A stretch of DNA of 64,000 bases from NCBI GenBank assembly GCA_903824855.1, contig CAIJYI010000043.1, positions 177 to 64,176 of the forward strand, in the 5' to 3' direction. Positions 16,416 to 44,320 of the stretch are shown in pieces. Below the pieces are notes generated by a model. The model was not told the DNA's origin and did not search any database. It saw only the letters and a list, made by a program, of their open reading frames with translations. The position numbers and the translations under genes are program-made. Position 1 is the stretch's first letter, and each line of letters starts with the position of its first letter. This stretch comes from an uncultured bacterium (lineage in GTDB: Bacteria > Patescibacteriota > Minisyncoccia > Phycocordibacterales > CAIJYI01).

Positions 16416-16493
16416 AGGTTATAGGTTATAGGGGATAGGGTTTAGACAACGACCTAACCCCTAAAACCGATAACCCAAAACCTAACACCTAAC
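16416..16493. repeat. G-rich/C-rich palindromic element built from TTAGG/CCTAA-like units (copy 1, atpA-atpG spacer)
   Basis: gaggttataggttataggggatagggtttagacaacgacctaacccctaaaaccgataacccaaaacctaacacctaac, immediately before the atpG ATG. Confidence 0.7.
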
Positions 16494-16495
16494 AT

Positions 16496-17404
16496 ATGCC
16501 AAGCACACGAGATATTAAACGTCGAATAAAGCTCATCAAAACTACGAGTCAAATAACTCGGGCGATGGAGCTTGTTGCGGCGACAAAAATGAAACGTGCC
16601 GAAGTGGAAGCTCGCTCGACGCAGGCATATTCTTCGAGAGGAAGAAAAATTCTTCGTGCTCTTATGGAACATTCCGATACCGAACTTTCTCCATTCTTTA
16701 AGACAAACGAAAAAGGGAAGATTCTTGCTCTTGTAATAACTCCTGATCGCGGTCTTTGCGGGGCACTCACCGGAAACGTCCTTCGCCAAGCCGTAGCTCT
16801 TCTTTCAAAATATGAGAAAGATGATGTAGATATTATGACTATCGGAAAAGTCGGACAGGATACGTTCAAAAGACAGGGATATAATATTATCGCAACCGCT
16901 ACGCATCTCGATTGGAAACCAAAAATATTTGATATTAGACCATTTTCAAAAATTGCACTCGACGGATATTCATCGGAGAAATATCGCCGTGTCTATTTGA
17001 TTTTTACACATTTTATTTCAAACTCAGTACAACATCCCGCCATTCGATGGCTCTTTCCATTCTCTCCCGACGATGAAAGTGAAGATATGTTGCACGTTAA
17101 AACTTTAGAAAAATATCCGCTTGGTCCAAAAGAAGACCTACATGCGACCGAGAAATTTGAATATTTATTTGAACCGTCACCCGCAAAAGTTCTTCCATTT
17201 ATTATTCGGAACCTTGTCGAAATGGAAATGTATCAGGCCCTCCTCGATTCCAACGCCGGAGAACATTCAGCCCGAATGATTGCGATGCATTCCGCGACAG
17301 AAAACGCAAAAGAATTAGTCGGCGATCTTTCCCTCACTTTCAACCAAATGCGCCAAGAGGGAATTACCAGAGAGCTTGCGGAGATAAGTGCATCAAATGC
17401 ATAA
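16496..17404 (+). CDS. atpG: ATP synthase subunit gamma
   Basis: N-terminal IKRRIKLIKTTSQITRAMELVAATKMKRAE and C-terminal helix. Confidence 0.9.
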   Translation: MPSTRDIKRRIKLIKTTSQITRAMELVAATKMKRAEVEARSTQAYSSRGRKILRALMEHSDTELSPFFKTNEKGKILALVITPDRGLCGALTGNVLRQAVALLSKYEKDDVDIMTIGKVGQDTFKRQGYNIIATATHLDWKPKIFDIRPFSKIALDGYSSEKYRRVYLIFTHFISNSVQHPAIRWLFPFSPDDESEDMLHVKTLEKYPLGPKEDLHATEKFEYLFEPSPAKVLPFIIRNLVEMEMYQALLDSNAGEHSARMIAMHSATENAKELVGDLSLTFNQMRQEGITRELAEISASNA

Positions 17405-17430
17405 AACATAATTTGTAAATCATAACTATC

Positions 17431-18801
17431 ATGAACAAAGGAAAAATAATTCAAATAGTGGGAAGCGTTATTGATGCGGAATTTCCGCTGGCTTCTCTTC
17501 CGACACTTTTAAACGCTCTTCATGTAAAGAACGGAGAGAATACCGTCGTCTTTGAGACGAGTCAACACCTAGGAAATGGTCGCGTTCGCGCTATTGCTCT
17601 TGGGACGACTGACGGCCTCGCTCGTGGAATGGAAATTGTTGATACGGGAGAACAAATTAGCGTTCCTGTTGGAGACGGCGTTCTCGGACGTATGTTTAAC
17701 GTTCTTGGTGATACTATCGACGGAATTGAAACACCTTTGACTACCACAGAAAAATGGGCAATTCACAGATCTGCTCCGAAATTTAGCGAGCAACGAACTG
17801 AAACGGAAATTTTTGAAACCGGAATTAAAGTTATTGACTTGATCGCTCCGTTTTCAAAAGGAGGAAAAATCGGACTCTTCGGAGGTGCGGGAGTAGGGAA
17901 GACAGTTCTCATCATGGAGCTCATCAACAACATTGCTAAAGAGCATAATGGCTATTCCGTATTTGCAGGAGTTGGTGAACGAACTCGCGAAGGAAATGAC
18001 TTGTATCACGAAATGAAAGGCTCCGGAGTTCTCGATAAGACCGCTCTCGTTTTTGGACAAATGAACGAAATGCCCGGTTGCCGCGCGCGCGTCGCACTTT
18101 CCGCTCTCACGATGGCAGAATATTTCCGCGATAAATCCAAACAAGACGTTCTTCTCTTTGTTGATAATATTTTCCGCTACACGCAGGCAGGATCCGAAGT
18201 TTCAACATTGCTCGGACGTATGCCTTCAGCTGTAGGATATCAGCCGACACTTGCTTCCGACTTGGGAGAACTCGAAGAGCGCATTACTTCTACCGGCGAA
18301 GGTTCCATCACTTCCGTTCAGGCGGTGTATGTTCCTGCCGACGACTTGACCGATCCGGCTCCTGCAACCACCTTTGCTCACCTCGATTCCACCATCGTTC
18401 TTTCTCGTACTCAAGCCGAACTCGGTATTTATCCCGCCGTTGACCCGCTCGATTCTTCATCATCAGTTTTGGACCCACGTGTCGTCGGAAAAGAGCACTA
18501 TGAGACGGCAAGAGGCGTACAAAAGACTTTGCAACGCTACAAAGAGCTTCGCGACATTATCGCCATTCTCGGTATCGATGAACTTTCTAATGAAGACAAA
18601 TTGACTGTAGCGCGCGCGAGAAAAATTCAGAAATTCCTTTCTCAATCCTTCACCGTCGCCGAACAATTCAGCGGTCGCCCGGGAAGCTATGTTCCTCTCA
18701 AAGAAACAATCCGAGGATTCAAGGAAATCTTGGAAGGTAAACACGACGATAAACCGGAAGGAGCATTTTACATGGTCGGAGGAATTGATGAAGTGAAATA
18801 G
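17431..18801 (+). CDS. atpD: ATP synthase subunit beta
   Basis: [26 protein letters not shown]-like region. Confidence 0.95.
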
Positions 18802-18836
18802 AGAGCTCATAGCGAGAACCTAAAAGCTAAAAAAAC

Positions 18837-19277
18837 ATGTCTACATTTCGACTCAAAATAATAACGCAAGAAGAGGTACTTCTCGAACAGGAAGTGGAGT
18901 CGCTTTATGTTACGACAATTGATGGTGATATCACCGTTCTTCCTCATCACACTCCGTATGTAAGTATTCTCAAACCTGCCGAAGTAATCATCAAAGTAGG
19001 AGGGAAGGAAGAATCATTCGCTTGCACCGGCGGAATTTTAGAAGTTACTCCCGAGAAAGTTGTTATCCTTGCAGACTCCGCGGTTCGAACGGAAAAGATT
19101 GATGAAGAAGCGGCGTTAAAAGCGAAAGAACGTGCCGAGAGTGTCATGGCAGAGAAATTGGAATCAAGAGAAAATGCCGAGGCGATGCTTGCTCTCGAAA
19201 AAGCTCTCCTTCATCTTCGTGTCGCGCAAAAAAGAAAGCACCGATCTTCATTGCCGACAAACCCAAATCAAGAATAA
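18837..19277 (+). CDS. atpC: ATP synthase subunit epsilon
   Basis: beta-sandwich N-domain plus helical C-domain; operon position. Confidence 0.85.
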   Translation: MSTFRLKIITQEEVLLEQEVESLYVTTIDGDITVLPHHTPYVSILKPAEVIIKVGGKEESFACTGGILEVTPEKVVILADSAVRTEKIDEEAALKAKERAESVMAEKLESRENAEAMLALEKALLHLRVAQKRKHRSSLPTNPNQE

Positions 19278-19306
19278 AAAAACGCCCCGGAAGACGGGGC
19301 GTTTGA
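19278..19306 (+). terminator. terminator after atpC
   Basis: aaacgccccggaagacggggcgtttg. Confidence 0.55.
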
Positions 19307-19320
19307 CTAAACTTTGAATA

Positions 19321-42760: not shown

Positions 42761-42790
42761 AAAGACCACCCTCGGGTGGTTTTTCTTTTG
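42761..42790 (+). terminator. terminator after rplE (the cluster ends here; no rpsN/rpsH/rplF follow)
   Basis: aaagaccaccctcgggtggtttttc. Confidence 0.6.
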
Positions 42791-42887
42791 TCATAAAAAC
42801 GTTTTTTTGTTTGTATGATAAGATTGTATAAGGTATTATTAAAACAAGTCATTATTCAATTAATTATTAATCGATATAAAAATATTT

Positions 42888-43703
42888 ATGGACGAATTAT
42901 TTAAAAATAAAAAAGTAGTACAAGTTGTTATGGTGCTGTTGTTGTCATTATCGGTATATCTTATCGGTCTTGCCGTGAATAATATTAAGACAAACACTTT
43001 TATTGGGCGAGATATTCCTGCACTCACGACTATCAATGTGACGGGGGAAGGAGAGGTCTTTCAAAAACCTGACGTTGCTGAGCTTTCATTTACAGTAAGC
43101 CAGGATTCCAAAACAGTGTCAGAGGCTCAATCAATCTCCACGGAAAAAATCAATAAAATTACCTCATACCTCAAAGATACGATGAAAATTGCGGATAAAG
43201 ATATCAAAACCGAGGATTACAGTGTTTATCCAAAATACGAATACCAGAAAGCCGTTGCGTGTTTGAATTTAAATATGAACGGATTTTGCCCTGACGGGAA
43301 ACAAATTCTTGTCGGATATACGGTCAGTCAGACAACTTCTGTGAAGATTCGCAAGATTGATGATGCCGGTACTATTCTCACCGCTATCGGAGATAAGGGG
43401 GCGACGACGGTGAGCGGACTCAGCTTTACCGTTGATGCGAAAAAAGATTTTGAAGCAAAAGCCCGCGACTTGGCAATAAAAGAAGCGCAAACAAAAGCTG
43501 AAACCTTGGCAAAAAGTTTAGGGGTTTCTCTTACACGCATCACGAATTTTTCAGAAGGCGGAAATTCACCGGTGTACGGTTATGGTGGCGGCGTAATGAT
43601 GAAAACAGCTTCACCGATGATGGATTCTGCACAAGCTCCGACGATTTCAGCAGGTGAAAATAAATTCACCTCGAATGTAAACATCACCTACGAGATACAG
43701 TAA
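42888..43703 (+). CDS. SIMPL-domain (DUF541/YggE-like) periplasmic protein
   Basis: N-terminal TM, TINVTGEGEV...PDVAELSFTV...EAQ pattern. Confidence 0.6.
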   Translation: MDELFKNKKVVQVVMVLLLSLSVYLIGLAVNNIKTNTFIGRDIPALTTINVTGEGEVFQKPDVAELSFTVSQDSKTVSEAQSISTEKINKITSYLKDTMKIADKDIKTEDYSVYPKYEYQKAVACLNLNMNGFCPDGKQILVGYTVSQTTSVKIRKIDDAGTILTAIGDKGATTVSGLSFTVDAKKDFEAKARDLAIKEAQTKAETLAKSLGVSLTRITNFSEGGNSPVYGYGGGVMMKTASPMMDSAQAPTISAGENKFTSNVNITYEIQ

Positions 43704-43744
43704 AGATGAGGTTATAACGGTTAGCTTTTTTAAGGAACAGGCGA

Positions 43745-43797
43745 CAAAATAAAACGTTCTGGATGGGGTCAGATGAGCCTGTCCAGAACGTTTTTTC
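43745..43797 (+). terminator. terminator (long hairpin)
   Basis: aacgttctggatggggtcagatgagcctgtccagaacgtt + T-run. Confidence 0.55.
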
Positions 43798-43873
43798 TGA
43801 ACTAATCGGGTTTGATATCAAAGGACTTTTGAGGTAAACTATTTCTACTTATAAGTAATCTGCAATTTATACT

Positions 43874-44182
43874 ATGAATACAAAAACAAAAATTATTCCG
43901 CTTGCCGATCGTGTATTGGTCAAGCCGGGAAATCCAAAAGATTCCATGAAAACAAAATCAGGGATTATTATTCCGGATACTGCAAGCAAGGACATACCTG
44001 AAATGGGTGAGGTTCTCGCCGTCGGAGAAGGAAAAATGCTTGATAACGGAGAGATTATTCCCGTCAAAGTGAAAGTGGGTGACCTCGTTCTTTTTTCAAA
44101 ATACGGACCGGATGAAGTGAAAATTGATGATGAAAAATATTTTATTATCAGAGAAGAGGCAATATTGGCAGTAGTGAAATAA
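43874..44182 (+). CDS. groES: co-chaperonin GroES
   Basis: IIPLADRVLVK...GEVLAVGEG... Confidence 0.9.
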   Translation: MNTKTKIIPLADRVLVKPGNPKDSMKTKSGIIIPDTASKDIPEMGEVLAVGEGKMLDNGEIIPVKVKVGDLVLFSKYGPDEVKIDDEKYFIIREEAILAVVK

Positions 44183-44218
44183 TATCCAATCGCAAATTTA
44201 TCAGTAATTATACAAATA

Positions 44219-44320
44219 AGGTTTTAGGGATTAGGTTATAGGTTTTAGACGAAACGATTCTTGTTTTCTAAATCCTAACACCTAACCCCTAACCCCTAAT
44301 CCCTAAAACCTAAAACCTAA
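44219..44320. repeat. TTAGG/CCTAA-type palindromic element (copy 3, groES-groEL spacer)
   Basis: ggttttagggattaggttataggttttagacgaaacgattcttgttttctaaatcctaacacctaacccctaacccctaatccctaaaacctaaaacctaa. Confidence 0.75.

Follow-up and report, generated by a model that had tools for sequence, protein, structure and literature searches.

A probable family of palindromic intergenic elements with heptanucleotide arms at core-operon junctions in Paceibacteria

Three elements of one architecture within core operons

The 64-kb window analysed here (64,000 nt of contig CAIJYI010000043.1, from an uncultured bacterium) carries genes of ATP synthase, ribosomal-protein and chaperonin operons, and in three spacers within these operons, atpA-atpG, rpsS-rplV and groES-groEL, lie palindromic elements whose arms are built from 7-nt repeats. 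The GroEL homologues of the window belong to Candidatus Paceibacterota/Parcubacteria, part of the candidate phyla radiation (CPR). Together with the 64 kb of this genome we examined about 1.3 Mb of DNA from relatives, designated below by L numbers; the groES-groEL region was compared in the sister species L005, whose GroEL is 94% identical to that of the window, and in 80 species representatives, where the best GroEL match is 88%. A first-pass annotation had described three elements of shared architecture at these junctions, and this stands, as both the sequences and the Pfam matches of the flanking genes (AtpA/AtpG, S19/L22 and Cpn10/Cpn60) agree with it. Overall, what that annotation observed is partly confirmed and its interpretation is partly supported.

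Copy 1 (16415-16492, plus strand), delimited by its period of 7, its fold and its sequence, consists of a 5′ arm at 16415-16447 (GAGGTTATAGGTTATAGGGGATAGGGTTTAGAC, four heptamers ending AG-AC), the loop AACGA at 16448-16452 and a 3′ arm of CCTAA-type heptamers at 16453-16492. Its stem begins 0 nt past the atpA stop codon (16411-16413) and finishes 18 nt before the atpG ATG (16496), and the spacer is identical in six other assemblies. Copy 2 (39225-39306, plus strand), supported by sequence, Tandem Repeats Finder, fold and membership of repeat families D1 and D3, has its 5′ arm at 39225-39256, a loop at 39257-39273 (GAAACGGTTTCCGTTTC) that forms a mini-hairpin on its own, and its 3′ arm at 39274-39306, between the rpsS stop (39216-39218) and the rplV ATG (39312); it is identical in L001 and L002. 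Copy 3 (44218-44320, plus strand), found by sequence, Tandem Repeats Finder, fold and as inverted repeat I2, lies between the groES stop (44180-44182) and the groEL ATG (44326). Its 5′ arm (44218-44250) reads AAG GTTTTAG GGATTAG GTTATAG GTTTTAG AC, its loop (44251-44268) is GAAACGATTCTTGTTTTC, and its 3′ arm (44269-44320) has 7 units, 3 above the number in the 5′ arm; this copy is identical in L001-L004.

In the shared design the 5′ arm repeats the 7-nt unit NTTWTAG four times, with an AG that does not vary at each 7-nt step and AC as closure, and is followed by a short, unique, AACG/CGTT-rich loop that is often a mini-hairpin and by a 3′ arm that starts with GT and continues with 3.5-7 complementary, G-poor units CTAWAAN (CCTAANN in the window). 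The 3′ arms of the window copies end 3-5 nt before the ATG, and in all three the 3′ arm outlasts the 5′ arm, leaving 12-18 nt unpaired. Tandem Repeats Finder reports period 7 in every arm (2.4-6.7 copies), and the element spacers match themselves at lag 7 with an identity of 0.53-0.62, other lags giving about 0.29. With at most one mismatch allowed, CCTAANNCCTAA has 20 matches in the window against 3.2 expected, a number that none of 100 shuffles reaches, and 19 of the 20 fall inside the three elements; the window as a whole nevertheless has fewer CCTAA than expected (54 occurrences versus 100). The arrays had also been said to end alike, with CCTAACACCTAA just before the downstream ATG. This holds for copies 1 and 2 (3 and 5 nt before the ATG) but not for copy 3, in which CCTAACACCTAA stands at the inner end of the array (44274-44285) and it is CCTAAAACCTAA that closes the array, 5 nt short of the ATG.

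The earlier proposal that the arms can form long RNA hairpins is borne out by predicted folds of the three spacers, at -28.5, -35.3 and -35.4 kcal/mol for copies 1, 2 and 3, with z-scores of -4.5, -4.9 and -5.9. Both arms carry stop codons in all three frames, the final 45 nt before each downstream ATG are free of ATG, GTG and TTG, and the starts that follow the three elements are without a Shine-Dalgarno (SD) sequence. A search of Rfam at gathering thresholds gave no match for the elements; with E-values of up to 5 it returned noise only, at copy 3 (mir-1502, 27.8 bits versus a gathering score of 66).

The three spacers are identical across 4-10 independent assemblies of the same species, so that the elements are no assembly artefacts. 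These strains are at least 99.9% identical overall, and a look for conservation or polymorphism within the species is therefore uninformative, with the exception of a single longer spacer: according to gene coordinates alone, the groES-groEL spacer measures 150 nt in one of eight strain contigs and 143 nt in the others, which suggests, as far as a 7-nt difference in length can, that the number of units changes by one-unit slippage. The atpA-atpG spacer measures 82 nt in all 10 same-species contigs.

The same architecture in relatives

In related genomes, the search of which the first-pass annotation had proposed, the same architecture was found, and the family thus extends beyond the species of the window. 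Nine groES-groEL spacers (L005, L009, L008, L046, L063, L070, L031, L034 and L054) have it with other units. In L005 these read GGTTATA GCTTATA ... TATAAGC TAACAGC, in L046 GGTGTTA ... CCTATAA CCTAAAA, and in L063 and L070 TAGGGTA ... CCCTAAA CACTAAT; in L008, L009 and L218 purine-rich units face pyrimidine-rich ones, and in L034 and L054 the polarity of the element is inverted. A G-poor array alone abuts the groEL ATG in L016, L058, L061, L014 and L045. Among the 29 groES-groEL spacers of 45-400 nt, 11 fold at z <= -4 and 10 have a lag-7 identity of at least 0.5, versus ~0.29 at other lags.

Copies are also found elsewhere in these genomes, and the bias to co-transcribed, highly expressed operons that had been noted in the window holds in the relatives (groESL, atp and the S10/spc ribosomal-protein genes). 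L005 has further copies at atpH-atpA, upstream of atpD and at the 3′ end of a SIMPL-family gene, and a heptamer array abuts its atpG start. Five copies stand in one ribosomal-protein operon of L216 (rpsS-rplV, rplP-rpmC, rpmC-rpsQ, rpsQ-rplN and rplX-rplE), two in L215 (rpsS-rplV and rpsQ-rplN) and one in L217 (rpmC-rpsQ), and L218 and L219 have several further copies, one at rplJ-rplL among them. Two features of L005 may be recorded here. The longest array seen in the relatives is a near-perfect nine-copy (AAGTTAA)n at 8330-8392, in a spacer of 435 nt ahead of the SIMPL-family gene, and a PemK-family toxin gene (20585-20989) lies between atpG and atpD, within the ATP synthase operon, adjoining a partial element.

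Position and polarity at gene junctions

We described the geometry of 23 intercistronic copies. Their stems are 15-44 bp long, begin 0-13 nt past the upstream stop codon in 21 copies (36 nt in the other two, both groES-groEL) and finish 3-23 nt before the ATG in all 23. A target preference for the region upstream of start codons had been suggested; what remains of it is an orientation bias, the G-bearing arm lying 5′ and the G-poor arm toward the ATG in 20 of the 23, with 3 inverted, while the elements adjoin the stop codon as much as the start because they fill whole short intercistronic spacers. The bias reappears among individual arrays: those ending at most 12 nt from a start have fewer G than C on the coding strand in 17 of 23 cases, 10 of them without any G, whereas arrays farther from starts show no strand bias (15 versus 16). 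Polarity, not proximity, is the non-trivial positional feature. Whole elements are found, too, at the 3′ ends of genes, ahead of a promoter and with 70-100 nt to the following ATG; the SIMPL-groES junction of L005, L218 and L219 is one such case, and there the window has a canonical terminator after its SIMPL-family gene.

Period 7 prevails among tandem arrays of at least three copies in 1.29 Mb, with 60 arrays versus 13, 4 and 11 at periods 6, 8 and 9. Sixty-seven of 82 period-7 arrays are intergenic, and of the 64 that have a gene on either side, 53 have co-directional neighbours. The lag-7 autocorrelation of all upstream and downstream 35-mers shows a small bump only, so that some of the spacers, and not leaders in general, have heptamer periodicity. 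A metagenome scan for CCTAABNCCTAABNCCTAA returned, among the matches listed, arrays from many unrelated taxa with a GC content of 0.37-0.69 and none from the species of the window. A scan of viral contigs for TAGN4TAGN4TAGN4TAGAC was judged uninformative, as this pattern specifies only 14 bases and, by a rough estimate, chance alone would give matches so frequent in a collection of this size.

Window genes are mostly A/T-rich upstream and without an SD sequence, a minority having a strong GGAGG (e.g. 20664 on the minus strand, 36136 and 37509). A TATAAT-like hexamer stands 6-9 nt before many ATGs, for example those at 2615, 6926(-), 12999, 21052, 24077, 49030, 50011 and 55753, and the two observations together suggest widespread leaderless or very short-leader mRNAs.

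Copying between loci, gain and loss, and covariation of the arms

Several comparisons bear on how the copies arose. The four similar copies of L216 fall into two loop subtypes, each found at two non-adjacent junctions, and copies of the same subtype are 85% and 90% identical across the whole element, unique loops included. The groES-groEL element of L005 and the rpsQ-rplN element of L215, two genomes from the same sample, are 80% identical. Side-by-side reading shows the L215 rpsS-rplV loop (GAATACGGAAAC...CGTTCGTCATTC) again at rpmC-rpsQ of L217, loops that MAFFT does not register, and an exact block of 32 nt is common to the 3′ arm of the L216 rpsS-rplV element and a site downstream of L218 groEL. 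In all, non-repetitive loops of 20-30 nt are common to non-adjacent junctions and to different species. The seven copies aligned from the window and sister species all have four 5′-arm units and the closure AG-AC...GT-CT.

Filled and empty versions of the same site were found for rpsS-rplV, rpmC-rpsQ, rpsQ-rplN, rplP-rpmC, atpH-atpA and SIMPL-groES among the window, L005 and L214-L219. The rpsS-rplV spacer, for instance, measures 21-25 nt in L214 and L217 versus 93-115 nt in the window, L215 and L216, and the atpH-atpA spacer 7 nt in the window versus 111 nt in L005. Because loops are shared, the four units and the closure are constant and sites are filled or empty, independent slippage cannot explain these patterns. 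Judged from sequence comparison, this is a dispersed family whose copies are derived from one another by transposition or gene conversion.

The pairing of the arms was tested on the seven-copy alignment with 500 column shuffles and with controls in which the partner column was slid. Standard pairs occupy 86.4% of cells versus 77.0% in the shuffles, compensatory changes are seen in 9 of 22 pairs versus a shuffle mean of 5.5, and the covariation score is 0.253 versus 0.101; none of the 500 shuffles reaches the observed value of any of these measures. Sliding the partner column by 1-3 positions lowers pairing to 25-58%. GC, CG and UA at the unit's first position are among the compensatory changes. 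The shared loops, the filled and empty sites, the 32-nt exact block and the co-varying arms all favour the earlier suggestion of a small non-autonomous element, behaving as repetitive extragenic palindromic (REP) sequences or MITEs (miniature transposable elements with inverted repeats) do.

Interpretation and alternative explanations

We favour the reading, with a probability of roughly 0.57, that the elements form a lineage-specific family of REP/MITE-like intergenic palindromes of ~80-110 nt in Paceibacteria, tolerated and perhaps useful in operons, and we infer for them a role in mRNA stability, processing or translational coupling. Under this model the elements would be co-transcribed within operon mRNAs and would fold into a stem of 15-44 bp, so that the insert is looped out and the base of the stem brings the upstream stop, at a distance of 0-13 nt, together with the downstream ATG, at 3-23 nt. 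The effective distance from stop to start would thereby be kept at 10-35 nt. The surplus units of the 3′ arm would provide a G-free tail without ATG, GTG or TTG, a leader for a start that lacks an SD sequence, and a terminating ribosome would open the lower stem, lengthen this G-free single-stranded leader and keep translational coupling; coupling kept in this way would account for the tolerance of essential operons to the insert. The polarity may come from selection against G-bearing, structure-prone and potentially start-codon-containing sequence beside the ATG. The long stem could in addition act as a REP-like, Correia repeat enclosed element (CREE)-like or phage T7-like hairpin, stabilising the mRNA or serving as an RNase III-type processing site. 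Phage T7 has RNase III sites between cistrons.

A number of points weigh against this reading, the first being that the census of copies is partial, confined to the DNA described above. No obvious target-site duplication was seen at the filled and empty junctions inspected, where the ends of the element are imprecisely defined, and the window proteins for which there are Pfam data include no transposase domain; when a further 30 proteins of the window were scanned with Pfam, no transposase, HutP, cold-shock, CsrA or RNase III domain was found. The covariation among paralogous copies could come from hairpin-templated correction without selection. The minus strands have predicted folds as stable as the plus strands or more so, and RNA is consequently not singled out over DNA as the structured molecule. 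About half of the relatives have plain groES-groEL spacers of 1-30 nt; since many relatives have such short, element-free spacers, the element is dispensable at this junction, and its absence from many relatives fits a selfish or neutral insert. Near-start arrays number 23 versus 14.8 expected under uniform placement in spacers, a modest excess, as the elements fill short spacers. Finally, every functional step of the model is something that we infer.

Among the alternatives, independent local growth of each array by heptamer slippage and local inverted duplication, with neither copying between loci nor function, appears distinctly improbable. Period-7 arrays do dominate the tandem repeats of these genomes, as they do in bacteria generally according to Mrazek (2007) as cited in PMC4679880, and one would expect from local growth the different units at the same junction in different species, the 7-nt longer spacer in one strain, the partnerless arrays of L013, L016, L058 and L061 and the CCTAA-type heptamer arrays of many unrelated metagenome contigs (37-69% GC among the matches listed). 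It does not give the non-repetitive loops of 20-30 nt common to non-adjacent junctions and species, nor can slippage alone produce four 5′-arm units and the AG-AC...GT-CT closure in seven of seven aligned copies. A role in translation initiation only, in which the G-poor CTAA-type array is an unstructured landing pad or enhancer for an SD-less start and the 5′ arm is incidental, is unlikely, although it would account for the scarcity of G in arrays near starts (fewer G than C in 17 of 23 and 10 G-free, with distant arrays unbiased at 15 versus 16), for the 3′-arm-only arrays that abut groEL in L016, L058, L061, L014 and L045, and for the surplus of 12-18 unpaired nt in all three window copies, and although the TAACTGA arrays described by MacGregor are analogous (PMC4679880). 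The array, however, is mostly locked in a stem and should then inhibit initiation; complete hairpins also stand at gene 3′ ends, 70-100 nt from an ATG and upstream of a promoter; 3 of the 23 copies are inverted, with the G-bearing arm beside the ATG; and most SD-less genes of the window have plain A/T-rich leaders and no arrays. Internal promoters, or intrinsic terminators or attenuators, that split the operons are very unlikely. Long stable hairpins do directly follow stop codons, and in L005, L218 and L219 a copy replaces the canonical terminator that the window has after its SIMPL-family gene, but no T-run follows any of the three stems, consensus scans detected no terminator- or promoter-like site in 16414-16495, 39219-39311 or 44183-44325, and the junctions join genes that need co-expression (atpA/atpG, ribosomal proteins and groES/groEL).

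That the arms are arrays of XAG-N4 or CUX-N4 sites, bound by an oligomeric single-strand RNA-binding protein (HutP/TRAP-like, cold-shock or S1) that controls the downstream cistron, is improbable too, and the heptamer arms are to that small degree candidate binding-site arrays, at which such a protein would open or clamp the intercistronic hairpins. The only invariant columns of the 5′ arm in the seven-copy alignment (A2) are five AGs at 7-nt spacing and the AC, with CT(A) recurring at the same interval in the 3′ arm, and period-7 XAG or CTX persists in distant species whose units differ (L046, L063, L008, L013, L016, L058 and L061); HutP reads XAG triplets with four-nt spacers and melts its hairpin from the 5′ side (PMC2425495), and S1, Csp or CsrA proteins were proposed by MacGregor for start-codon TAACTGA arrays (PMC4679880). 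The window proteins with Pfam data, on the other hand, include no HutP, TRAP, cold-shock or CsrA protein, S1 being the sole RNA-binding match; other subfamilies have period 8 or units without AG (L215 rpsS-rplV, L015 and L009); invariance of AG may be mere common descent of the units; and the elements are absent from many relatives. If the arms were such arrays, Paceibacteria would have a global post-transcriptional regulon over ribosomal-protein, ATP synthase and chaperonin operons made from a mobile cis-element, and the start-adjacent heptamers of Beggiatoaceae, cyanobacteria and Xanthomonas might share the same logic. The first-pass annotation had further considered that the G-tracts form G-quadruplexes, and we regard repeats that form G-quadruplexes or i-motifs, a proposal made for GGGNATC heptamers in Xanthomonas and Nostoc, as extremely improbable here. 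The 5′ arm has four units, the number that a G-quadruplex requires, a preference for four units is also reported by Rehm et al. (PMC4692102), and two-tetrad GG motifs can be written for each copy; but there is no canonical G-quadruplex motif, the tracts being nearly all GG, and a pattern search found no copy with four tracts of at least three G and only 1-2 G3 tracts per copy. Units of sister species alternate GG and GC or have a single G (AGC, AGT) with the architecture retained, the arms of L008, L009 and L218 are A/T-rich, and a hairpin of 22-33 bp would compete strongly with a two-tetrad quadruplex.

Partial copies and other features of the window

Three shorter stretches of the window resemble parts of the element. 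A half copy at 27177-27224 (plus strand, period 7 in Tandem Repeats Finder) consists of a four-unit array of the 5′-arm type (AGGTTTTAGCTTTTAGCTGATAGCTTTTAGG) and a small GC hairpin and lacks a 3′ arm; flanked by two minus-strand genes, a CMD-family gene and rpsA, it belongs to repeat family D3 at 60% identity and is tentatively assigned to the element family. Directly after the stop of the SIMPL-family gene, a degenerate 5′-arm remnant at 43704-43735 (plus strand, AGATGAGGTTATAACGGTTAGCTTTTTTAAGG), recognised by its position and its GAGGTTWTA start, probably corresponds to the complete element that L005, L218 and L219 have at this 3′ site. Six nt before the atpC ATG, a two-unit array (CCTAAAAGCTAA, 18819-18830, plus strand), a weak case with a single one-mismatch match, may be a minimal or decayed array of the 3′-arm type.

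The first-pass annotation had also listed a truncated copy after the helicase gene, at 31893-31950. This stretch is without heptamer arms and folds no better than its shuffles (z +0.57), and we rejected it as a member of the family: it is half of a different repeat of ~130 nt (31905-32037), also present in L005. That repeat follows the UvrD/PD-(D/E)XK helicase gene; its A/T-rich centre is framed by two modules in inverted orientation, CGCCGG-hairpin-CCGAAACGTTT on one side and AAACGTTCCG-hairpin-CCGGCG on the other. Its homologue in L005 (at about 19390-19545) lies within the 709-nt atpA-atpG spacer.

Other structures stand before ribosomal-protein operons. Two copies of a long hairpin (GAGCCGTTTCGTYCTTTTCCCGGGTTATG ... 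CGCCGAAAAAGGGAAAAGRACGAAACGGCGAACG), at 32640-32740 and 53270-53470 and with no Rfam match, lie upstream of rplC (32879) and rplJ (53627), and could represent a further repeat family or a ribosomal-protein leader specific to the lineage. The stretch just upstream of rplJ (53500-53626, AAGCCGCGAAGACAAGAGGCATCCATAAGCCCTCTCGAG...GGTCGATCTTCGGTTG) has a conserved counterpart in L009 and partly conserved ones in L026 and L219, and looks like an L10-leader-type structure, again with no Rfam match. The S10/spc string is split between rplB and rpsS by three genes (35321-38852), whose products are two proteins of unknown function (170 and 387 aa) and a GcvT-like aminomethyltransferase; in L214-L217, rpsS opens a new block after unrelated genes. 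Right before the annotated rpsS start a small hairpin, AAGCTCTGATTAAGAGGAGCTT (38831-38852), pairs an SD-like AAGAGGAG box, and it is kept in L214 and L215, whose called rpsS start sits 18 nt farther downstream, for which reason the rpsS start of the window may be mis-assigned. Downstream of atpC, 19616-20231 holds a tandem duplication of ~395 bp at 88% identity with small minus-strand ORFs (open reading frames); adjacent ORFs of 75 and 77 aa have a strong SD sequence and no Pfam match. The tmRNA gene (4299-4688, minus strand; tag ANLSSKVTAMVSPYFTPEFALA) lies 2.2 kb from smpB (6926-7372, minus strand).

Comparison with known systems

The combination of inverted heptamer arms, a conserved closure and a unique loop, copied in a REP/MITE-like manner to core-operon junctions of CPR bacteria, appears new, on the basis that no description of it was found in the literature searched. 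In CPR/Patescibacteria, whose genomes are small and densely packed, these elements of ~100 nt nevertheless stand in the most conserved and most highly expressed operons. If the elements have been recruited, they would offer operon-internal control of the stability, processing or translational coupling of mRNA segments in an organism that mostly lacks SD sequences; if the fold makes them harmless, they would show how selfish DNA persists in streamlined genomes. In either case they are a compact and comparable set of loci for testing the roles of heptamer repeats, as well as hotspots of assembly breaks and wrong start-codon calls in CPR metagenome bins.

Heptanucleotide repeats are the commonest class of long simple-sequence repeat in bacteria (Mrazek 2007, in the account given by PMC4679880). 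Closest in position are the TAACTGA direct repeats of marine Beggiatoaceae and some Cyanobacteria and Bacteroidetes (MacGregor 2015, PMC4679880), which are likewise 7-nt tandem units a few nt upstream of SD-less starts, lie inside ribosomal-protein operons, give stops in all frames in the forward orientation, differ in the favoured unit from genome to genome and have been proposed to bind an RNA-binding protein. Those arrays are direct, with no predicted structure and one indirect repeat noted, whereas here the arms are inverted around a unique loop and form long hairpins, whole elements are copied between loci with their loops, and the unit sequence and the phylum differ.

The heptamers GGGNATC and GGGGA(C/T)T of Xanthomonas and Nostoc (Rehm 2015, PMC4692102), and the cyanobacterial STRR (short tandemly repeated repetitive) and LSSR (long simple-sequence repeat) heptamers, are also intergenic heptanucleotide repeats enriched between co-directional genes. 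The GGGNATC repeats place their G-rich strand at most 50 bp past stop codons and their C-rich strand just before ORFs, prefer four units, vary in number and sequence between close species at the same locus, and occur in inverted arrangements with possible stem-loops (PMC4692102). They differ in having GGG tracts that form G-quadruplexes in vitro (PMC4692102), where our tracts are GG or absent, and for them neither a conserved loop or closing motif nor element-like copying was described.

With REP sequences, bacterial interspersed mosaic elements (BIMEs) and REPINs the elements share their nature as short co-transcribed extragenic palindromes between co-directional or convergent genes; REP/BIME sequences, too, pair inverted units into larger hairpins, form species-specific families and have been proposed to be mRNA-stabilising hairpins and non-autonomous mobile DNA (PMC3733652, PMC3116915). 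REP sequences are RAYT-associated imperfect palindromes of 20-40 bp with an unpaired GTAG/CGTC tag, in contrast to the 80-110 nt and heptamer arms found here; the GACG...CGTC of several loops is paired and is not the unpaired terminal REP tag. The CREE/NEMIS elements of Neisseria are similar as co-transcribed elements of ~100-150 nt with inverted ends and strain-variable presence, and RNase III binds or cleaves the long hairpins that they form, which alters the expression of adjacent genes (PMC2649163). CREE differs in its defined inverted repeats at the termini, its duplication of a TA target and its IHF site (PMC2649163); the arms described here are tandem heptamers, at which no duplication was seen.

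The HutP sites of the Bacillus subtilis hut terminator present XAG at period 7 on the 5′ side of a hairpin that precedes coding sequence, and HutP recognises the A and G only (PMC2425495), which matches the AG columns of our elements; the XAG-N4 spacing is present in them, with five AGs at 7-nt intervals invariant in all seven aligned copies. The HutP sites comprise two sets of three triplets separated by a linker of 12-17 nt within a GC-rich, U-tract terminator and belong to one operon (PMC2425495), whereas our elements have 4-5 AGs in a single arm, no terminator and many loci. Set against these systems, the elements join start-adjacent heptanucleotide simple repeats with REP/MITE-like palindromes, which are separate classes in the literature.

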